Origin: Candidatus Latescibacterota bacterium
GTDB lineage: Bacteria; Latescibacterota; UBA2968; SICM01
Length of the DNA stretch: 64,000 nucleotides
Direction of reading: 5' to 3'
Assembly (NCBI GenBank): GCA_965217865.1
Contig: CBDCJO010000002.1
Span: forward strand, 512,001 to 576,000
The translations under genes were made by a program, and so were the position numbers. Each line of letters starts with the position of its first letter. The stretch's first letter is position 1. Below, one piece after another: positions 12,612-62,728 of the stretch. Under the pieces are notes generated by a model that did not search any database, was not told where the DNA came from, and saw nothing but the letters and a program-made list of their open reading frames with translations.

Positions 12612-12811
12612 CTAGTGTCGTGTCCCGGAAATTCCTTCAATAATTTCTCGGATAGCGGTCTGTAAACCCTGAACGGAGCGAAGGATCTCTATGTCCCGAA
12701 CTATCAGACAGTTGGTGCGTTCTTCGCTCGCTCGCTCTCGATCAAAATGACAGCCACCGCTACGTTTTTGGAGGCTTTCTTTTGTAAGGAACTTCTGGGA
12801 CACGACACTAG
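12612..12811. mobile_element. ~200 bp MITE with IS630-type ends, copy 1
   Basis: Perfect terminal IR CTAGTGTCGTGTCCC / GGGACACGACACTAG; same end as the IS630 at 20462; second copy at 57492-57686. Confidence 0.88.
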
Positions 12812-13247
12812 ACATCTCTTCATGATTGATTTCTCCTTCAATCGGGCATTGTGTGTGATGCACGGAGATCTCGAGCTACGGTATAGGCTTGCATCACCCC
12901 ATCTGATGGTCGCTGACGGCAATATAGGGCATCTGGTCGGCTACAGATCAGGTCTGGCCACACACCTGCCAGCAGCCCAAAGCCCGTGCGCTACTCCTCA
13001 AAATACCCCATGCCAATACCTTCAAGGAAGCAGACAAGGGCTCCGCAGAAAGTTCGTCGCGCAGTATTGAAACGAGTTCCCCAAGGCCGCGGGTAACCTG
13101 CTACGTCCCGGACGGTCATGGGCCTGGGATCGATACGTCTGCCATGATGGATTCCTCTTTGCAGTCGACAAATATATCAAGGAATGACCGTTTAAACCAG
13201 TTCAAATTCAGGCAGGCCGGATACATGGCCCGTCGGGAGAGTCCTTG

Positions 13248-13785
13248 GGCTCCGGGCGCACGGCTGTTTCCGCTGTCCGGTGGGCTGCCGTAAGCTGGTG
13301 ACCGGACCCATTGGATCCGGCTTCCGGTGAATACTTGCCGGAGGACCTTCCGAAACGTCGAACCAGGCTGTCAAACAAGGCCGACGGGAAAAACAGAGAA
13401 TCGGAGAATCCGGAAGAGATATCTCTGCTCAAGCGGACGCAACCCCACGGTTGCGCTCGAACACCTGAGGGAGCGCTTCGAAACAGAGAACCGGCAGAGA
13501 GGGGAGAGGTGGCCCAAGTGTTTGTGAATACGGCAGAAACGACAAGACCCCGGAGGGTTTCCCCACGGGGTCTTGCGTTAACGGACGACCGCCGAAGTTG
13601 GCGGATGGGAATATGGCTCCCCATATGATCCTTTCCCCGGAACCATTCTCTGTTTGTCAGACGTAACATCCTGTATTGAATGGATATATCGTAATTTCGC
13701 CCGCACCGTCGAGGCGGAAACCATGTCAAGACGTCAAGATCGATTCCCGTTTTTCCAGTCATATCAGTCGTTTCTTCCACATTGA
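13248..13785. repeat. ~540 bp hairpin-rich non-coding repeat, copy A (candidate island att end or structured RNA)
   Basis: Colinear similarity with 41810-42345; partial copies at about 41175-41232 and 62611-62658 (inverted). Confidence 0.85.
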
Positions 13786-15687: not shown

Positions 15688-15766
15688 GGGTAACGTTCAG
15701 TGGCTCACGAACCCGCGATAGCGGGTTGGAGCGGAGCGAAGCGAAGCCGTGAGCCACATGTTAGCC
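15688..15766 (-). other. Integron attC site
   Basis: Minus strand: GGCTAAC ATGTG GCTCACG...CGTGAGC CACTGAAC GTTACCC; downstream of the GNAT gene. Confidence 0.85.
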
Positions 15767-15821: not shown

Positions 15822-16424
15822 TCAGAGATGGTCTGGCTTGTTAATCCGGAACCCAAGTTGTGTGATCTTGCCATCCCCGAAGACGCTGTCTTCAATTTCA
15901 TCGAGTTCAGGTGATCGAAAGAAGCCGACTTTCGTAAAAAGATTAATGCTTGCCTGATTGTGTTCATATATCCCAGCGACAATGTAATTAAGGTCGAGTT
16001 CTCGGAAGATGAAGTCCACTGATAGTTGAACAGCTTCTGTTCCGTATCCCTTGAACCTAAAAAGTTCGTTGATCCAGATTCCCAGATCCGGTTCAAGATG
16101 GGCTGGAGCCAGACTGCTGCAACCAATTCGTGCTTGATCCTGCAATCGGACAATGGTGGCGTTGAACAGTTGCGGCGGTCTATCTGGGTTGGTGAACATC
16201 CCAAGGAAATCCTCGTAGGATTTCCAATCATGCTTGGCATTAAAGTTCCTCTGCGTATCGGGATCCTTCCAGGTTTGGTAGAACAGTCTATAGTCCTCTA
16301 GAAGAAACTCGGTAAGGCCAACAACCTTTCCTTTTGTGTAGAAGATTCGGCTCGAATCGTCTGAGGTCATGGATCCGTCCATTCCCAAGTTGGTCATAGT
16401 CAGCGCAGGATGATTCGGAGTCAT
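15822..16424 (-). CDS. GNAT/RimJ-RimL family N-acetyltransferase (gene cassette)
   Basis: DLGIWINELFRFKGYGTEAV...IYEHNQASINLFTKVGF; true start may be a downstream Met. Confidence 0.88.
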   Translation of the reverse strand: MTPNHPALTMTNLGMDGSMTSDDSSRIFYTKGKVVGLTEFLLEDYRLFYQTWKDPDTQRNFNAKHDWKSYEDFLGMFTNPDRPPQLFNATIVRLQDQARIGCSSLAPAHLEPDLGIWINELFRFKGYGTEAVQLSVDFIFRELDLNYIVAGIYEHNQASINLFTKVGFFRSPELDEIEDSVFGDGKITQLGFRINKPDHL

Positions 16425-16620
16425 CCTGTCATTGCAGTTTTGATTTGGCGGCTAACGTCCCACGGTTTGCGAACCCCCGAGGGGGTTGCCCGTAGGGCCA
16501 AGGCGCGCACGCGCCGCGGCGCAAGACGCTGTGATATTAATCTAAAGGCCCTCGTTGTCAGGAAAAGTTATTATTTGAGGTCCGGATATCTCAATAACCT
16601 TTCCACCACAGGAGGGCCTT

Positions 16621-17664
16621 ATGCGATACGCGAAGATCGACTCCGACTATTTCTGTGGCATCGATCTCCACGCCAGAACCATGTATGTTTGTGTAATGAG
16701 TAAGATGGGGGAGATTGTGTTCCAGCGCAATCTGAAAAACGACTTCAAACTCTTACTGCAGGTGCTGGAAGCTCACCTCGGTAGCATCGCCGTCGGGGTG
16801 GAGTCAACCTTCAACTGGTACTGGCTGGCTGACGGATGTCACAAGGCCGGAATTCCATTCTACCTGGGACACGCCCTGTATATGAAGGCGATCCACGGGG
16901 GCAAAAAGAAGAACGACCGTCTCGATTCCAGAATGCTGGCAGAGCTGATGCGCTGCAACCTGTTCCCGATGGCCTATGCCTATCCGCAAGAGATGCGGGC
17001 AACCCGGGACCTGCTCCGGCGAAGGCACCGGTTTGTGGCCTTACGGGCTGAGTGCTACACCCACATCCAGAACACCTTCTCTCAGCAGGCTATCCTGGAT
17101 CCTCTCAGCGACCAGGTCAAAAAGAAGACCAGCAGGAGAAAGCTGTGCGAACGTCTGGCCGACCCAGATCTGGGTATGTCTGTGGGCTGCGATCTGGACC
17201 TGGTTGACTCCCTGGACAAAATGATCTACAAAGTCGAGAAGCAAGTCCTTGCACAGGCCAAACATCACGATCGCAATGCCCTGTCTATCCTGATGACGGT
17301 TCCCGGACTTGGGGAGATGCTGGCCATGACCATCCTGTATGAAATCCACACGGTTGAACGGTTCAAATCCGCTTCAGCCTTCTCCTCCTACAGCCGGCTG
17401 ATCAAAGTCGAGAGAGAGTCCGCTGGGAAGAAGACAAAGGACGGGAATAACAAAATCGGAAACCCACACCTAAAGTGGGCCTTCTCGGAAATCATCCTCG
17501 TGGCTCAGAGATGGTCAGAACCGATCAATAGAAACTACGAGAAACTCAAGAGCAAACACGGTCCGGGAAAAGCCAAGAGCGTCATCGCTCATAAATTCGG
17601 CGTGGCCGCCTACCAAATGCTCAAAAGTGGCCAGGCATTCGACGAGAAACGGTTTGTAGCATAA
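16621..17664 (+). CDS. IS110/IS1111 DEDD recombinase (transposase)
   Basis: GIDLHARTMYVCV, VESTFNWYW, KKKNDRLDS, VPGLG, ESAGKK, GNPHLKWAF; intact, with RBS GGAGG. Confidence 0.95.
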   Translation: MRYAKIDSDYFCGIDLHARTMYVCVMSKMGEIVFQRNLKNDFKLLLQVLEAHLGSIAVGVESTFNWYWLADGCHKAGIPFYLGHALYMKAIHGGKKKNDRLDSRMLAELMRCNLFPMAYAYPQEMRATRDLLRRRHRFVALRAECYTHIQNTFSQQAILDPLSDQVKKKTSRRKLCERLADPDLGMSVGCDLDLVDSLDKMIYKVEKQVLAQAKHHDRNALSILMTVPGLGEMLAMTILYEIHTVERFKSASAFSSYSRLIKVERESAGKKTKDGNNKIGNPHLKWAFSEIILVAQRWSEPINRNYEKLKSKHGPGKAKSVIAHKFGVAAYQMLKSGQAFDEKRFVA

Positions 17665-17665
17665 T

Positions 17666-18140
17666 GGGTGGGGCGGTTAACCCGGCAGCTAACTGGCAGG
17701 GCAACGTCCGGACAATAGCCCAGCTCTCCCGCTGTGATTGGGAAGCCGCCTTCACCCCTTATATAGAACATAGATGAGCGGATCTGAGACAGTCAGTCCG
17801 TCTGCCCCCGCGATGAACCCGAACCTAACTGGCGTTCCCCCTCACAAAAAGGGGAGAACAGCCATCCTTCTTGATTGGGTCGCAAGGGGTACCGATTATT
17901 TTCTGGAGGGAGAGGAAAAGCCTCTCCCAGGGCGCTCCACAGAATACCGTGAGAGACGCTTGATTTCCAATACGTGTTTGGTGCAGATGGCTCACATCTA
18001 GCCCGGTATGTGAAAATCGAGCCAGACTGGCGACTGACAAAGATCCGAACATCGCTAAACCTCTTCGGATCGGCTCATTGCAAGTCCCGACCGTTAGGGT
18101 CGCAAAAAAACGGTGAAAATCGTGATGAAGGGGTCTTTTT
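17666..18140 (+). ncRNA. Candidate bridge/seek RNA with two tandem target-loop modules
   Basis: Hairpins 17666-17757 and 17805-17889 each contain CTAACTGGC...[7 nt]ATTGGG; CTAAC and CGCTGTG of module 1 match the two strands of the occupied attC target. Confidence 0.7.
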
Positions 18141-18192
18141 TTCTTGACCCGGGGCCTTTAATATGTGTTAGATGAAGTTGTCTACTACTCCT

Positions 18193-18970
18193 TCATTGTT
18201 TCGAATTGTAGGTCAGTTCCCAGTGCTTCTCCTCAGGCCGCTCTATGTACTCAATATTCTCAGCCAGACCTAATAAGGAAGGAATAAGCTCTTGTTTTAC
18301 CGGGAAATTCTTGACCATGTTGTAACTTCGCCCATCTGCGAGAACCCGCTGCTCAATAGTGTTCCCCTCCGAATTTTCTTGCCTTTGCACGGCCAATCCG
18401 GTCAAGCCGGAAACCTCGTATCTAAGTTGATCGACAAATAGCACCAAGGATCCAGGGACTAGTACTTAGTTGCGCAAGTTTATGCGTGCAAATCCGCCCT
18501 TAACATCCTGTTTTTGCTAGGAAATCATATTACGCGAATTTCCGCAGGTTGGTACTAGCTTGCGGTGAAGTGCCTTTAGAAACTCCGCCACCCGTGATTT
18601 GGGGATATGGGACCACCACCAGACCGCAAAAGCTGCTGTGAAGGTGCCGGTCAGCTGATCTAGAGAATACGCATCAGCGTGATGGAAGGTCACGTGTTGA
18701 AGTCGAGCACACCTTGCCGTAGCGCGGGAGATCATTTCGGGGTTAACGTCAGTTGCAACAACCGACCTCGCAGTTTCTGCTACTACCTCTGTCCAGTATC
18801 CAGTTCCACACGCAATCTCGAGTACGTCATGGCCCTGAAACAGTTGCTGATATCTTCTCTTCTTTGGAACGCGGAGCTGATCTGCCTGTTGATTCAGATA
18901 CCCGGCGCTAAGATCGTATTCGGAAGCGCGCGCAGCATAGTAACGGGTTGTCTCTTCGGAAATCGCATCA
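18193..18970 (-). pseudogene. Class I SAM-dependent methyltransferase cassette interrupted by a MITE
   Basis: [10 protein letters not shown]...[12 protein letters not shown]...ATDVNPEM...WWSHIP...HRKLV|PGSLVLFVD; the frame is continuous once the MITE at 18459-18558 is removed. Confidence 0.88.
18459..18558 (+). mobile_element. 100 bp CTAG-bounded MITE, copy 1
   Basis: CTAGTACTTAGTTGCGCAAGTT...AATTTCCGCAGGTTGGTACTAG; four near-identical copies; CTAG duplicated. Confidence 0.9.
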
Positions 18971-19070
18971 CTAGTACTTAGTTGCGCAAGTTTATGCGTG
19001 CAAATCCGCCCTTAACATCCTGTTTTTGCTAGGAAATCATATTGCGCGAATTTCCGCAGGTTGGTACTAG
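18971..19070 (+). mobile_element. 100 bp CTAG-bounded MITE, copy 2
   Basis: Same sequence as 18459-18558 with one substitution. Confidence 0.9.
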
Positions 19071-19071
19071 T

Positions 19072-19712
19072 CCTAAAATAAGCGAATAGGCTTGTTGAGC
19101 GGTGTGTTATACAAGATTTCGGAGCATTTCAGACTTGTGACTTGGTCGAGATGATGTCTGGGCTGTTTTTGTGATTGTTTCGGCATGCGATTGTCTAATT
19201 AACTGAGTTTGCGGACGTGTTTTAGCCGGGGTGGACGGACTTGTCCCTGTGATGTTACGACGACAGGTGCTGACATGGCAGTCAGGCCGGTTTGAGCCAT
19301 CTAATTCTGTTCCAGGCCGGGAAGAAGTCAGTCATCCACCGGTTGTAGCCCAAGACACGATAGATGATCTGTCTTCCCCGGGTCACGATCTGGCAGGGGA
19401 TCCAGATCAGATTCTGGAGGAAGGCGCGAAACTCCATTCTCAGAAGTTGATCGCGACGCTCACGCTTTCGGATCATCAACGCGAACCAGGCTTTGAGGTT
19501 CCACGCCAGGGTGGTCATGACCATGTAAGCCCAGTTGCTCATCAGGTTGTCGACGGGCATCCGCATGGCGTTGACCCCGTTCTTGAGTTGTTCAATCACG
19601 TTTTCCTGATCGCACCGTCGATTGGCCAGCCTCACGATTTCCGCGGCCGTAAGATCTTTTCGGGTGGTAATGTAGAAGAAACAGCGCTTGTCATCGAACA
19701 GGGCGTTTTCGC
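19072..19712 (-). pseudogene. IS1380-family 3' remnant (transposase C-terminus and right end)
   Basis: ANRRCDQENVIEQLKNGVNAMRMPVDNLMSNWAYMVMTTLAWNLKAW...MEFRAF. Confidence 0.85.
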
Positions 19713-20274: not shown

Positions 20275-20365
20275 TTAACGCGGAGGATCACCAATTTGAA
20301 AAACAGGCGCTTTATTTCTATTCTAAATTTGGGTTCTTCACGTTTAAGAGTGGATCAATAATAAT

Positions 20366-20465
20366 CTAGTACTTAGTTGCGCAAGTTTATGCGTGCAAAT
20401 CCGCCCTTAACATCCTGTTTTTGCTAGGAAATCATATTACGCGAATTTCCGCAGGTTGGTACTAG
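20366..20465 (+). mobile_element. 100 bp CTAG-bounded MITE, copy 3
   Basis: Matches copy 1; shares its right CTAG with the end of the IS630. Confidence 0.9.
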
Positions 20466-21262
20466 TGTCGTGTCCCGCCAATAACTTCAAATAGTCGGTT
20501 AATCTTTTCGAGGATGGATTCTGCGGTGGCCGTCCACACAAAGGGCTTTGAATTTGAGTTGTAGTGATCGACGAATTTCTTGATGTTATTGATCAAATCT
20601 TTCACGCTACGAAAGGAACCCCGGCGGATTGCCTTTTGTGTAATGATGTTGAACCATATCTCGACTTGGTTTAGCCAGGACGCGTAAGTGGGTGTATAGT
20701 GGACCTGATATCTTGACCGGGCTGCAAGCCATTGTTTGACTTTAGGGTGCTTGTGCGTGCCATAGTTGTCCAAGACCAGGTGAGGATCGAGATCCTCCGG
20801 GACGTTTGCCTCGATGTGTTTTAGGAATTGAAGGAATTCCTGATGACGGTGTCTCGGTTTGCATTGTGTTAACACTTTTCCCGAGGCGATCTCTATAGCA
20901 GCAAACAGCGTCGTGGTCCCGTGCCTGATGTAGTTGTGAGTTATGCCTTCGACGTAACCCAAACCCAGTGGCAGAATCGGTTGCGTTCTATCTAATGCCT
21001 GGACCTGGCTTTTCTCGTCCACACAGAGCACCATAGCGTTGTCTGGTGGGTTGAGGTAGAGTCCGACAACGTCCCTGACCTTCTCTACAAAGAAGGGATC
21101 GTTTGAGAGTTTGAAATGTTTCTGTCGATGAGGTTGAAGTCCAAAGGCTCGTGAGTCCGATATCACTCATCAGCATGATCTTCGCACGGCGCACCAAAGA
21201 ATGGGGTAAGATCCGCGAACCAGATATCGCCTTCAATTCACTTCGGACTTCATCACTAAGGT
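20462..21262 (-). pseudogene. IS630-family transposase with internal deletion and missing left end
   Basis: FKLSNDPFFVEKVRDVVGLY, CVDEKSQVQALDR, YIRHGTTTLFAA, LDNYGTHK, SWLNQVE; N-terminal piece HSLVRRAKIML joined out of register; stop codon is the TAG of the terminal CTAG. Confidence 0.9.
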
Positions 21263-22093
21263 TCAATGCAGCAGAACCGGCACGGTGGCGTTGCCCTCAC
21301 GCAAGATCGCCTGCTTGCTTTCCCACCCCTCGTCCAGCCAGGAAGAATGGAACTTGATGTCGTCAACCACTTCCGGCATTTCGTCGAGAGTATTCTTGAG
21401 ATCGCGTTGGGAGAGAGTTCGACGTTTTTCGGCGAGTTTTTTGACGGAATCGTGGGCTGCTTTGAGGTCCGCGCGGCGGTACGGGCGTCCGTCCATGCCG
21501 TCGTAGTCATAGACCAAGCAATGGGAACCATCTCGATTTTCCAAACGGCGGTTCAACCGTCCCATCCGTTGCATCAGGGCCGGAAACGGCGGGAGGGCGG
21601 TCACCAGCAAGTCCGCGCTGATGTCCAGGGACATTTCGCATACCTGCGTCGTCACCGCCAAACATGGCGATTCGTCCTTTCCAAAGGCCGTCCGTATCTC
21701 GTTTTGACGGTCCACGCGGTGGTGATAGCAAAATCGGCTGTGAAACAGAGTACGTTTCACGTCGTCGCCTAACTTCTCCGCCTCGTCATAAATGCGGACG
21801 GCATCGGCAACGGTGTTGCACACCCACAACACCTTGTCGCCGTTGTCCAGCGCGCTCTTGACAGCTCTCCAGTATTCATCCGGAATCGAAGCGCTCTCTT
21901 TGTTTGTCGTTGCGGACTCCCGCTTATCAATCCATTCCAGGCGATACCGGCCTGCCTTTTCCGCTGCGTCATCGCCAGAAATCAGTTCGTAGTCCACGCC
22001 CGCCGACTTCAACGCTTCGCGACGAGACGGTTGCAACGATGCTGTCATCAGCAGTACGGGGACTTGTGGGAAAGTTCTCAGGAACCGCACCAA
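21263..22093 (-). pseudogene. cas3: CRISPR-associated helicase Cas3, helicase-C fragment
   Basis: [26 protein letters not shown]...DR, VTTQVCEMSLDISADLLVT, LMQRMGRLNRR; truncated at both ends. Confidence 0.88.
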
Positions 22094-26496: not shown

Positions 26497-27552
26497 ATGA
26501 GAATGAGAAAGTCTGTCTACGTGATACTGTCGGTTCTGATCGCCGGGATAGCATCGGCGAGGCCCAAGCCGATCGAGATACCGGAAGGTTACGAGCACGA
26601 CAAGTGGAACACCGCACCTGACGATGCTATTCGTAAATTCGGGGCATTCACGAGTTCGTTCGACACTGACGACGACGACACGGGCGATGGCGTAAAGGAT
26701 CTCTGGGGTATTCCCCAGTGGGTCGCCTACCACATGAAAGCGTTTCGAGGCTCGCCGGATACTGAGAACCGGCCGGCTTGGTTCACCGACAACGGACTAA
26801 AGAACCAGGGTTTCGCCCCAACGGACGATACCTATAAATACTCGAAGGCTTTTCGAAAAGCCCATCCCAACTGGTACGTCCGCGGCCACCTCTGCATGAA
26901 GCTGCACGCTGCAAGGATCAGCCCCGAGGCCGAATGGAACACCTATACGATGCTGAACGCTGTGCCCCAGCGCCAGGAGTTCAATGCCGGTATCTGGCTG
27001 GATCTCGAGCACAAGACGGCAGATTGGGCTGATCTGTACGGCGAAGTTTGGATCATCGCAGGGCCGGTCGTCGGCCTGGATGAGCCGCCTGCTCTTCTGG
27101 GGGAACCGGACAAAGACGAGATGCTCATCGCCATCCCTGACGCGCTGTTCAAGATTGTCGTGCGCAGTTCTTCAGATGATCACCGTCCGGACGTTCTGGC
27201 CTTCATCTACCCACAGCAGGACGATGGTTATGATGACGGCCCTTACGATCACACCAAATACCTGGTCGGCGTTGACGACATCGAGGCTGCGACGGGCCTC
27301 GATTTCTTCACCAGCCTGTCTGGGGCTGACCAGATAGCAATCGAACGAAAGTTGGCCACGGGTCTTTGGGAGAAGATCAACATCAACACGGCAACCGCCA
27401 ACCAGATCGAAACCATCGACGGAATCGGGGGAATCCTGGCCATGAGGATTATCGAAGGCAGGCCATACAAAACTATCGAAGAGTTTCTAAATGTGAGAGG
27501 CATCGGACCGGCAAAACTGAATGCCATCCGGCCGCACGTAACCACAGACTAG
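26497..27552 (+). CDS. Secreted DNA/RNA non-specific endonuclease with a C-terminal ComEA-like HhH domain
   Basis: Signal peptide; PQWVAY, YVRGHL, TYTMLNAVPQRQEFNAGIW..LE, IPDALFKIVV, VDDIEAATGLDFF; KININTAT...IDGIG...RPYKTIEE...VRGIGP. Confidence 0.9.
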   Translation: MRMRKSVYVILSVLIAGIASARPKPIEIPEGYEHDKWNTAPDDAIRKFGAFTSSFDTDDDDTGDGVKDLWGIPQWVAYHMKAFRGSPDTENRPAWFTDNGLKNQGFAPTDDTYKYSKAFRKAHPNWYVRGHLCMKLHAARISPEAEWNTYTMLNAVPQRQEFNAGIWLDLEHKTADWADLYGEVWIIAGPVVGLDEPPALLGEPDKDEMLIAIPDALFKIVVRSSSDDHRPDVLAFIYPQQDDGYDDGPYDHTKYLVGVDDIEAATGLDFFTSLSGADQIAIERKLATGLWEKININTATANQIETIDGIGGILAMRIIEGRPYKTIEEFLNVRGIGPAKLNAIRPHVTTD

Positions 27553-27648
27553 TACCAACCTGCGGAAATTCGCGTAATCTGATTTCCTAGCAAAAACAGG
27601 ATGTTAAGGGCGGATTTGCACGCATAAACTTGCGCAGCTAAGTACTAG
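27549..27648 (-). mobile_element. 100 bp CTAG-bounded MITE, copy 4 (inverted)
   Basis: Reverse complement of copies 1-3 with two substitutions; inserted at the TAG stop of the nuclease gene. Confidence 0.9.
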
Positions 27649-41809: not shown

Positions 41810-42345
41810 GGACTCCGGGCGCACGGCCGCTTCCGCTGTCCGGTGATCTGCCGTAAGACCGGACCCATCGGGTCCGGCTTCCTGTGAATACTTGCCGGAG
41901 GACCTTCCGAAACGTCGAAAGGACGCAACCGGGCTGTTAAACAAGGCCGACGCGGAAAACAGAGAATCAGAGAATCCGGAGGAGATATCTCTGCTCAGCG
42001 GACGCAACCCCCACGGTTGCGCTTGCAATCCCGATGGGAGCGCTTCGAAACAGAGAACCGGCAGAGAAGGGGGGAGGTGGCACAAGCGTTTGTGAATACG
42101 GCAGAAACGACAAGACCCCGAAGGGGTTGCCCTACGGGGTTTTGCGTTAACGGACGACCGCCGAAGTTGGCGGATGGGAATATGGCTCCCCATATGATCC
42201 TCTCCCCGGAACCATTCTCTGTTCGTCAGTCGTAACCTGCTGTGTTGAAAGGAGATATCGTGATTACGCCCGCGCCGCAGACGCGGAAGACAGCGTCAAG
42301 ACGACTTCCGCCCTTCAGGTCAAAACAGCCACTTCTCCGACATGG
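41810..42345. repeat. ~540 bp hairpin-rich non-coding repeat, copy B
   Basis: Colinear with 13248-13785, same orientation; stems conserved and loops variable. Confidence 0.85.
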
Positions 42346-57475: not shown

Positions 57476-57491
57476 CTAACTTGACGGCTCA

Positions 57492-57686
57492 CTAGTGTCG
57501 TGTCCCAAAGATTCCTTCAATAATTTCTTGGGTAGCGGTCTGTCGTCCTGAGCGGAGCGAAGGATCTCTATGTCCCGAACTATCAGACAGTTGGTGCGTT
57601 CTTCGCTCGCTCTCGATCAAAATGACAGCCACCGCTACGTTTTTGGAGACTTTCTTTTGTAAGGAACTTCTGGGACACGACACTAG
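57492..57686. mobile_element. ~200 bp MITE with IS630-type ends, copy 2
   Basis: Same terminal IR and interior as 12612-12811. Confidence 0.88.
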
Positions 57687-57933
57687 TGGTCGATTCCAGA
57701 AATTCGTATAATGTTGCCTACATCAAGGCGCATGTTTACCATCAGGTTGTCTCCCCGACCGCGTTGGGAGGTAACCGACGCCTGGACCGAGGCCGAAGTA
57801 TCAGCCCCAGTTTGAGGCAGAGAAAATCGCGGAAGCTCGTGGGATCGCACAACAACGAACTGCACCCAGTTCCCAAGCCCAGAGGGCCAAGATGGTGTTG
57901 ATCTTGTCGGAGCATTTTGTGGCTCCGCTTCTC

Positions 57934-59916: not shown

Positions 59917-62610
59917 GTGGACGAGAAAAACCGCCCCGCTCATGAACGTCGTCCTGCCAGCCCGAATCAAAAACGAACAAGCGAAAGAGAACTGATGAAC
60001 CAACCTCGTCCTTCTATATACCGCAACGCCCTCCAAGTGTCTCCTGAGCGCATTGCAACGATGAGCGACGAAGACCTGAACGTGCTTATAAGGGAACTGC
60101 TCCGAGCCCAAGCGTACAAGTGTGGCTCCCCGCTCAGCGAGATCCGGGTCAACACCGAAGGCAAAGCCAAGGACGATGGGAGCGACGGTTGGTCTGCCAA
60201 GCCGGAGACACCAGATGACTGGTTCGGTTCGGCCGACACGTGCTGGCAGTTCAAGGCGGGGTTGGCTGGAGAGCCCGCGAGACTTCTAGGCGAGATCACC
60301 AAGCCCATTCCCAAGGAAACGGTTGCCGATGGCGGTCGCTTTGTCGTGGTTGCCTCTGGTTCGACGAATGGTAAGAAGGGGGAAGATAACCGTCGTGCGA
60401 TTCTGATCGATGATGCACAGAAAATGAACATTCCTTTCGATAAAATCGATGTCATCGGCAGTGAACGGCTCGCAAACTGGTGCAATCAGCATCCTGCAGT
60501 CGCAGCACGCTGGGCGGGACGGCCAGATGGCCTTTGGACCCTCGACGACTGGTCGAACTCCGAGGAGCATCAGGTTCCATATCAGTCATCCGCAACGGTG
60601 CAGTTGGAAATTGACGCTCGACGAACCGATCTGGATTTCGCAACGGGTAACGTCAGGCACATCCATATCCAAGGCCCCCCTGGGGTGGGTAAAACCCGAT
60701 TCGCGCTCGAACTCTGTCGTGAAGCACCTTGGCGCTACGCCGTTATCTACATCCGCCAGGCTGCGGATTTTCGCTTGGTAGAGCTGATCGACGGTGCGGC
60801 TACAGATCCGGGCGTCCAGCTCATTGTAGCCGCCGATGAGGTTCAACCTGATCAGCTCCGACCATTGCAGGATTCGGTGGAGCGGGGCAGTGGTCGCGTT
60901 CGCCTCATCACCGTGGGACACAACTCAAGTCCGGATCCCAGCCGCATACATGCGCTGTTAGTAGAGCCGCTCGATGATCAAGCTATGCAAAAGGTAATCA
61001 ACGGCTGGTACCCAGCAATGCCACCCGAGCACGTTGACTTCGTGGTGAGCTTCGCGGATGGATACGTCCGGCTTGCCCACCTGGCGTCAGATGCTGTTGT
61101 CCAAAACCCCGACATGAATGTGAGGGGATTGCTCAGCCGCGACGAGATTCGTGGATTCCTCGATGGAATGCTTGGCACGGGTGACCGGCGTTTCCTATAT
61201 GTTGTGGCGGTCCTGACCAGTGTGGGCTGGACTGATGACAAGCAAGAAGAGGGGAAGGCGGTTGCTAAGCACTTCGGCCTTGACTGGAACCAGGTGCGTG
61301 CGACTGTCGATGACTTCCATCGTCGGTTGGGGATTGCACCACGCAGTGGACGTTATCGGTACATCTCACCTGTTCCGCTGGGGACCCATCTCGCGGTTGA
61401 AGCGTGGACCACTTACCCCGACCTTTTGAAGTTGCTTCCCAGCGAGTTGCCATCGGATGGGGCCAGAGATGCGTACTATGAGCGTCTACAATCGATGACG
61501 AGTCAACCGCAGGCTCGAGAATATGCCCGTGAGGAACTGGCCTCTTTTTTGTGCGTCGATAACTTCATAGACGATCGCGGAGTCCGCCGTTGGTCGGCAC
61601 TGTCCTCCGCAGATCCTGACGAAGCCGCGCGCAAAATCCTGAGAGCACTCAGCGGTGCGAGCCTCGAAGATCGCAGGCGAGTCAAAGATCGCGCTAGACA
61701 GGAGTTAGTCGGGACGCTCGTGCGCCTCGCGTGGAGGTCGTCATCATTTCATGACGCGGCCAAAGCCCTCGCTCTGCTTGCCGAAGCTGAAAACGAAACG
61801 TGGGCGAACAACGCGTCCGCAGAATTCGCAGGCCGGTTTCAGATCTTCCTAGGTGGAACGTCTGTTCCTTACCTCGACCGCTTGTCTGTGCTCGATGAGC
61901 TTCTGGCGGAGGAACGGCCATCCTTAGCTAGTTTGACAGTGAAGGCCCTCGCGCAGGTGAGCAACTGGCAAGCCTTCCGTATGGGAAGCAGTCCGGCGTC
62001 TGACGAGTTGCCGGAGATGGAGTGGCAGCCGAAAACGGAGAGGGAGCATTTCGAGTGCGTTGAGACCGCGATTGTCCGCCTGAGCGATATCGCGAAGCTT
62101 GGGATAGCCGATATCCAGACAGACCTTGTTGCTGCAGCAAAAGGCTTCTCCATGATGCTGCGTGAATCCCCGGGGGGGAAAACTCGTTGCCAGCTTCTTT
62201 GATGCTGTGCGTGGGGCCTACCCGGAAGCCCGTGAGCCGCTGAGGAGAGCAATCGCTGAAATCATCCACAGCGAAAGGAATCATTGGAAAGATCTGTCCG
62301 CTAAGGAGCTAGGAGAACTACAGAAGCTGCATGCCCGCTTCGAGGCCCCCTCTTTGGGAGCTCGACTTCAGCAGCATGTAGGACAGACATCATGGTATCG
62401 GGAAGAACAGCCGGACCTGAGGCCGCTTGCAAAAGAGCTTCTATCCGCTCCAAAGGTTCTCATGGAGCAATGGCCATGGTTGACCTCCGGTGACGCATCT
62501 GATGCTTGGCGGTTGGGGGAGGCTTTTGCTGCAGTAGATTCAGAAGGAGATCTCGCTGAGACATTGCCATCGCTTCCTGGCGGTGGAAGCGACCTCCGGT
62601 TGCTTTGTGG
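59917..62610 (+). pseudogene. Restriction-endonuclease-like plus P-loop (STAND-type) plus helical-repeat protein, putative Avs-like defence; frameshift near 62175 and 3'-truncated
   Basis: DDGSDG...WQFKAG nuclease motif; IQGPPGVGKTRFA Walker A; LIVAADE Walker B; L.LLAEAENETWANNAS..F...F. Confidence 0.75.
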
Positions 62611-62728
62611 TCTGACGAACAGAGAATGGTTCCGGGGAAAGGATCATATGGGGAGCCAAAAGAAGAGCAGGGGCTCGGAGACATCCGATCCCCTTTCCAC
62701 TGAACAGGTAAAGCGAGATGCCCTCCGT

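Follow-up and report, generated by a model that had tools for sequence, protein, structure and literature searches.

A predicted three-loop guide RNA gene in an IS110-family insertion sequence that interrupts an attC-like site of a Latescibacterota bacterium

We analyzed a 64,000-nt stretch of a Candidatus Latescibacterota genome (the window), in which an intact IS110-family insertion sequence splits an attC-like site. The features at the locus, in window coordinates, are as follows.

15822..16424, minus strand: GNAT acetyltransferase gene, probably the following cassette, whose own attC-like site ends near 15765
16450..16533, minus strand: larger portion of the attC-like site that the element splits (spacer, L boxes and R' box GTTAGCC), from the sequence and the rebuilt empty site
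16527–16531, read on the plus strand: left target CGCTG, followed by the core TG at 16532–16533
16534..18167, plus strand: the IS110-family insertion sequence, intact, its right end taking in one copy of the TG core
16543..16551, plus strand: subterminal inverted repeat TAAAGGCCC, with its partner GGGCCTTTA at 18152–18160
16621..17664, plus strand: IS110 recombinase/transposase gene, 347 aa (PF01548 and PF02371; NF033542 at 185 bits, cut-off 140)
17666..17757, plus strand: module 1, a free-standing, seekRNA-like target-binding loop, from its fold and its covariation with the flanks; 5' guide CTAAC at 17689–17693, 3' guide CGCTG-TG at 17730–17736
17799..17990, plus strand: donor domain, whose outer stem (17799–17805 with 17983–17990) encloses module 2 and both donor guides, from the MFE structure and duplex energies
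17805..17889, plus strand: module 2, a second target-type loop and arm of the donor domain, from its fold and the comparison of relatives; 5' guide CTAAC at 17825–17829, 3' segment CTTCT-TG at 17867–17873
17894..17903, plus strand: right-donor guide GATTATTTTC, with the left end of the element as its predicted pairing partner, from covariation in group I (defined below)
17969..17976, plus strand: left-donor guide AATACG-TG, one mismatch to the right end AATATG-TG, from covariation in group I
18007..18013, plus strand: TATGTGA, a chance likeness to the circle junction and no guide
18144..18149, plus strand: predicted −35 box TTGACC of a putative circle-junction promoter (junction joined in silico, 17-nt spacer to GATATT)
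18168..18173, minus strand: R'' end of the interrupted attC, with the right target TTAG at 18168–18171 on the plus strand, from the rebuilt site and the empty site in sequencing run X6
18193..18447, minus strand: 84-aa ORF without a Pfam match, likely the cassette gene ahead of the interrupted attC

The surrounding DNA is rich in repeats. A long repeat, about 90% identical between its dispersed copies, lies at 13247–13719 and 41810–42288 (also 62610–62658), and short CTAG-bounded repeats with terminal inverted repeats were found at 12612–12811, 57490–57688, 18458–18573, 18970–19072, 20365–20466 and 27534–27648. The short repeats look like miniature transposable elements in their sequence, and one of their ends is similar to the end of a DDE_3 transposase at 20462. 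An isolated Cas3-like C-terminal helicase fragment sits amid transposase remnants at 21263–22093 (minus strand).

By joining the flanks of the element, we reconstructed the target CTAACACAGCG; it forms the R'' end of a minus-strand attC-like hairpin. The corresponding empty site was present in DNA sequencing run X6, with position 16529 joined to 18164. The host genome (G000) contains two full copies of the window's variant (variant A) and seven identical full copies of a second one (variant B, 94.6% identity to variant A), plus partial copies. All of them start with ATATTAA after TG and, where the right end is present, finish with AATATG-TG, which places the element at 16534–18167, with TG as the crossover core (16532–16533 and 18166–18167). 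Insertion was conservative around this short shared core, without target duplication, as indicated by TG at both junctions of the nine full copies and by the empty site in run X6. The window copy and most of the other copies in the host genome lie at TG-TTAN in attC-like hairpins; for copies B2, B4 and B6, no clear R' partner was present within the displayed flank. Copy A1 (G000:C2:370700-372332) showed a 2-nt slipped insertion within the TGTG common to donor and target (left CGC-TG, right TG-TG-TTAT), and an RNA contig from run X11 carried additional TG repeats at the right junction (window 18168). We also observed two internally deleted mini-elements in attC-like sites, one in the host genome (G000:C2:1604235-1604717) and one in that of a relative (L324), which kept both ends without the guide RNA and hence either moved in trans or were shortened in place.

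The recombinase has the DEDD RuvC-like and Transposase_20 domains of the IS110 family, and its distant structure matches included IS621 and ISCro4. The layout of the element, with a long non-coding region 3' of the transposase and the top-strand guide 5' of the bottom-strand guide, is that of the IS1111 elements whose seekRNAs have been described (ISKpn4, ISPst6, ISPa25; ISEc11/ISPa11; Siddiquee et al. 2024, PMC11187229), where a target hairpin of 80–95 nt likewise follows directly after the stop codon. ISKpn4 also shares the insertion at TG-TTAG in an attC end (target as tabulated in PMC13604230). However, the subterminal inverted repeats given for IS1111 are 11–13 bp long with 7-bp left and 3-bp right extensions (PMC11187229), whereas the element in the window has a perfect 9-bp repeat, set back from the left end by 9 nt and from the right end by 7 nt with the core counted. 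Despite the IS1111 layout, we therefore did not file it in IS1111 proper. Their long RNAs measure 148–172 nt in the same paper, in contrast to the non-coding end of ∼500 nt with a second target-type loop found here. Among 35 plasmid records at E ≤ 1e-30, none was labelled ISKpn4, ISPst6 or ISPa25, and the sole named relatives belonged to the ISGsu4 family. The ISGsu4 cluster thus provides the closest named relatives found by sequence comparison: its transposases (ISGsu4/ISGsu5/ISShfr7/ISShwo5; PMC11208160 supplement) have the same N-terminal signature, CGIDLH...MYVC, although identity between the window protein and the plasmid copies carrying these labels is only 35%.

The 500-nt right end of the element is predicted to be a three-loop guide RNA gene, with all three loops built by one grammar. 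A first, sequence-only reading had proposed an IS110-family guide RNA gene at this position, and the recombinase profiles as well as the covariation of donor and target guides described below support it. Its motifs were all located where it had placed them: CTAACTGGC at 17689–17697 and 17825–17833, CGCTGTG and CTTCTTG at the 3' ends of the two modules (17730–17736 and 17867–17873), ATTGGG after both, and TATGTGA further downstream. The claim that module 1 reads the real attC target was likewise borne out. When the non-coding end was shuffled 2000 times with its dinucleotide composition kept, the CTAAC...CGCTGTG pair never reappeared, and the repeated two-module layout arose in 10 of 2000 shuffles. 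Other claims were correct in part. Both hairpins do fold into an outer stem, an internal loop and an inner hairpin, but they are unequal, with module 1 standing free and module 2 lying inside the donor domain. The proposed 7-nt 3' guides are present as segments, but with TG serving as the crossover core, only 5 nt of each are variable (CGCTG versus CTTCT). The nesting is supported by the outer stem of the donor domain, whose own-partner duplexes averaged −12.4 kcal/mol versus −8.6 for shuffled partners (43 elements, 0 of 500 shuffles as low). We found no Rfam match in the window. RNA contigs from four runs of one study (X11, X12, X14 and X15) covered coding, non-coding and flanking sequence alike at a depth of 2–5 and, given this even coverage, provide no evidence of a small RNA.

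For the family-wide comparison, wide genome searches yielded few relatives (2/201, 7/401, 2/401, 23/401 and 2/46). The data set comprised 224 loci, of which 203 were usable and collapsed into 136 element clusters. A donor-loop anchor was found in 104 clusters and module 2, nested in the donor domain, could be parsed in 98. After dropping 12 clusters as ambiguous or three-looped, 86 rows remained, 68 of them with a left flank (55 distinct guide pairs, 95 sites). Module 2 was positioned manually in three cases, and copy A1 was scored in a register shifted by 2 nt. We distinguish group I, with window-like loops and mostly attC-targeting, from group II, which has non-attC targets. In addition, 30 independent sister pairs were drawn from a quick tree.

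Two guides within the donor domain covaried with both element ends, as in the donor loop of a bridge RNA. In 27 rows of group I, where some of the automatic donor guide calls were visibly wrong, the right-donor guide matched the left end at 3.89 of 6 positions (null 2.94) and the left-donor guide matched the right end at 3.81 of 5 (null 2.27). TATGTGA, which the earlier reading had considered as a donor guide on account of its likeness to the circle junction, is ruled out in this role: it changes to TTTGTGA in the seven variant B copies, whose right end is unchanged, and it is not conserved, with an end-matching word at this place in 5 of 37 relatives. Judged by sequence, the arm that module 2 forms in the donor domain is ancient and shared throughout the family, being recognizable down to about 32% transposase identity. 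Its family-wide presence and its nesting exclude a recent tandem duplication, and the proposed duplicated and reprogrammed loop finds no support in variants A and B, in which module 2 is identical while module 1 differs (CGCTG to CGGCT).

Across the family, insertion sites followed module 1. Its 3' guide matched the left target at 3.95 of 5 positions (null 1.87; 55 guide pairs), although module 1 had been chosen by hand among motif candidates in 31 rows with the targets visible on the same printout, compared to 2.57 of 5 for module 2 (null 1.67). Site by site (n = 95), module 1 fitted better in 65 cases and module 2 in five, with 25 ties. At positions where the two guides differ, the target agreed with module 1 in 161 cases, with module 2 in 24 and with neither in 22. 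In the sister pairs (n = 30), module 1 tracked target changes 19 versus 4. The right target gave the same ranking, as the 5' guide of module 1 scored 3.52 of 4 (null 1.89) and that of module 2 scored 2.87 of 4 (null 1.80; 34 rows), with some automatic 5' guide calls visibly wrong. Module 1 thus has two guides that covary with both target halves, like the target loop of a bridge RNA.

The behaviour of module 2 differed between the groups. Within group I, sister pairs supported guide 1 by 10 versus 3 and guide 2 by 3 versus 4, whereas in group II the 3' guide of module 2 followed the target 7 versus 0. The covariation of the module 2 segment with flanking targets anticipated by the earlier reading is therefore absent from the window's own group and present in non-attC relatives. 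When the guides of 22 group I elements were slid along the flanks, guide 1 produced a single spike at the left target (z 8.0); guide 2 produced none from −60 to +40 around the left junction and −60 to +30 around the right, with a best z of 3.2 in about 380 tests. In group I alone, the 5' guide of module 2 scored 2.73 versus 2.45 (p 0.035). We also considered the spacer of the other (R') half of attC as the object of module 2, and found no support for it (2.75 versus 2.60, p 0.27, 12 sites). On the other hand, targets that depart from guide 1 equalled guide 2 more often than in permutations, at 0.63 versus 0.33 (0.55 versus 0.33 without wobble cases), with a null that ignores kinship. In a gammaproteobacterial set (7 guide pairs, 12 sites), neither guide rose above its null, suggesting that targeting is loose and that every count given here may be blurred by guides acting in trans. 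Two gammaproteobacterial elements (L250 and L251) carried ∼30 extra bases between the module 1 3' guide and the closing motif, possibly a trace of guide rewriting or an inactivating insertion.

The earlier reading had also predicted that module 2 directs this element to a second target. We scored 15 left junctions for it (13 distinct ones from the host genome and two from sequencing runs; the remaining loose ends were either mixed or repeats of a 5-mer). None fitted CTTCT, the best reaching 3 of 5, and none had T at −4 or −3. Module 1 was itself loose in this genome: on its eight sites, variant B matched its own module 1 at 2.62 of 5 positions, compared to 1.85 for 26 unoccupied attC-like sites picked by eye out of 122 matches in the host genome. 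The corresponding values for module 2 were 1.50 and 1.38. Of the 26 unoccupied sites, none exceeded 3 of 5 for the module 2 spacer, and the single genomic CTAACAAGAAG is unoccupied and falls outside the attC-like matches. The host therefore offers no test target for module 2, which weakens the negative result and also means that module 2 is not tuned to the attC set of this host. Overall, a second programmed target for this element is not supported. On the same host contig (C2), the unoccupied attC-like sites, about 26 in number, occur in small scattered groups, several with identical spacers, and the genome has 18 tyrosine-recombinase matches.

The element is thus an IS110-family member working like a bridge/seek RNA system, and the remaining question is what its additional loop does. 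We tentatively favor, while stopping short of calling it probable, a division of labor in which module 1 matches insertion sites and module 2 holds on to the right junction of the occupied site while the element is copied out or its second end is transferred, rather than choosing a second target; a role of module 2 in excision is suggested by analogy with other elements. Transcription would start at the promoter formed by the circle junction. Module 1 would then be released as a short seekRNA-like species that picks new sites, by analogy with IS1111 seekRNAs (PMC11187229), and module 2 together with the donor loop would act on resident junctions as one linked bridge unit. Such a unit would depend above all on the core and the shared CUAAC arm, with the left target carrying little weight, which would explain why the 3' segment of module 2 is weakly constrained and lags behind the target. 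According to the text of the respective reports, short target-loop RNAs predominate with IS1111 transposases (PMC11187229), a target-loop-only RNA cooperates with the full bridge RNA, the latter being needed for LD-RT transfer (10.1101/2025.10.25.684509), and IS621 excision is independent of target complementarity (10.64898/2026.08.31.748434). The lean of departing targets toward guide 2 fits a lagging loop that holds junctions, but it also fits an auxiliary guide. Also counting against the junction-holding reading are the looseness of module 1 itself (2.6 of 5 for variant B), the tracking of targets by the module 2 3' guide in group II and the gammaproteobacterial set, with neither guide above its null.

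Alternatively, module 2 could be an ancestral target loop that is kept as a recombinase-binding or folding arm, with its guides unread in this clade. We regard this as a serious but rather unlikely explanation. It would account for the pyrimidine-rich 3' segment of group I (112 of 145 positions), which tracks nothing tested, and for two elements (L046 and L011) in which module 1 matches the right target but the module 2 5' guide has drifted away from it. However, such an arm would not be expected to follow the right target family-wide with its 5' guide and the left target in group II with its 3' guide; tracking of this kind could hardly persist unless the arm paired with DNA or were copied from module 1 again and again.

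The role of a real second insertion guide, less used and broadening the range of attC spacers, is in our view distinctly unlikely for module 2. The loop shares the grammar of module 1 and has an intact 5' guide, and the lack of a suitable spacer in this genome makes its silence here weak evidence. The five sites that fit module 2 better (for example L013, TTTTT versus CCTTT, and L153, TTGGC versus ATGGC), a further site outside that set (L235, TAACT versus TGACT) and the guide-2 lean of departing targets point in the same direction. Yet none of the five sites matches module 2 perfectly, the 15 junctions and the lone empty genomic match speak against it, as do the group I sister pairs, and the loop sits within the donor domain. 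The earlier notion of a natural multiplexed guide RNA with a site class for each loop is accordingly not borne out for this element; family-wide, there is a weak positive signal. Module 2 may still have an occasional guiding role, given the better fit at 5 of 95 sites and the targets followed in non-attC relatives. Finally, that module 2 is the donor-binding loop is hardly credible despite its position inside the donor domain, because its 3' guide matches the circle junction no better than chance (0.70 of 5, null 0.70) and separate donor guides covary with both ends; as first proposed, it is built as a target loop.

Better multiplex candidates than the element in the window are two elements from Chitinispirillaceae (L002:1134-1690 and L003:1051-1296), which have two free hairpins of the module 1 type with different guides ahead of the nested loop, amounting to four loops in all. 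In both, the transposase frame continues through the first hairpin region. The genome with L002 contains the shortened copy L324 at ATGGCC, a 6/6 match to the second free loop, and the flanks of L002 itself (CC / TTGT) agree. In the genome with L003, a left end (L329) at GGGCG matches the first free loop at 4 of 5 positions and the second at 2 of 5; read by eye, L329 overlaps the start of L003 at 49 of 50 bases. One copy fitting the second loop and another fitting the first is what one would expect if a small array of guides served a single recombinase, with evidence amounting to two or three sites. An IS110 subfamily with natively multiplexed guide RNAs, in which the nested loop serves as a functional second address and further free target loops occur in some members, is nevertheless an unlikely generalization at present.

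Compared to the bridge RNAs of IS621 and ISCro4 (Durrant et al. 2024, PMC11208160; Hiraizumi 2026, PMC13626964; Perry 2025, 10.1101/2025.05.14.653916), the predicted RNA shares target and donor loops with two guides each at a dinucleotide core as well as conservative insertion, but it has three guide loops instead of two, is located at the right end, downstream rather than upstream of the recombinase gene, and has a reversed guide order and the core TG. In many IS1111 orthologues, the donor nucleotides are described as lying in a multi-loop (PMC11208160). CazIS110-1, a two-pathway system with a target-loop-only RNA beside the full bridge RNA (10.1101/2025.10.25.684509), offers a precedent for a division of labor; there, however, both RNAs derive from one target loop, whereas the element in the window would use two separately encoded loops with different 3' segments. 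A second target loop was not described in the text searched of the bridge and seek RNA literature (including PMC11208160, PMC11187229, PMC13626964, PMC13604230, 10.1101/2025.05.14.653916, 10.64898/2026.10.21.760802 and 10.64898/2026.08.14.744561), whose figures and supplements may show it as an unnamed arm. This three-loop variant of a known RNA-guided system is thus real and apparently undescribed.

The bridge and seek RNAs described in that text have one target loop and one donor loop each. A widespread subfamily with a third, target-type loop in the donor domain provides a clean test of site choice versus site exit. With a free seeker and a complete bridge encoded together, such a gene may also bring the seekRNA and bridge RNA models into agreement. 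Should the extra loops indeed guide insertion, they would constitute a natural scaffold for multiplexed, programmable recombination.
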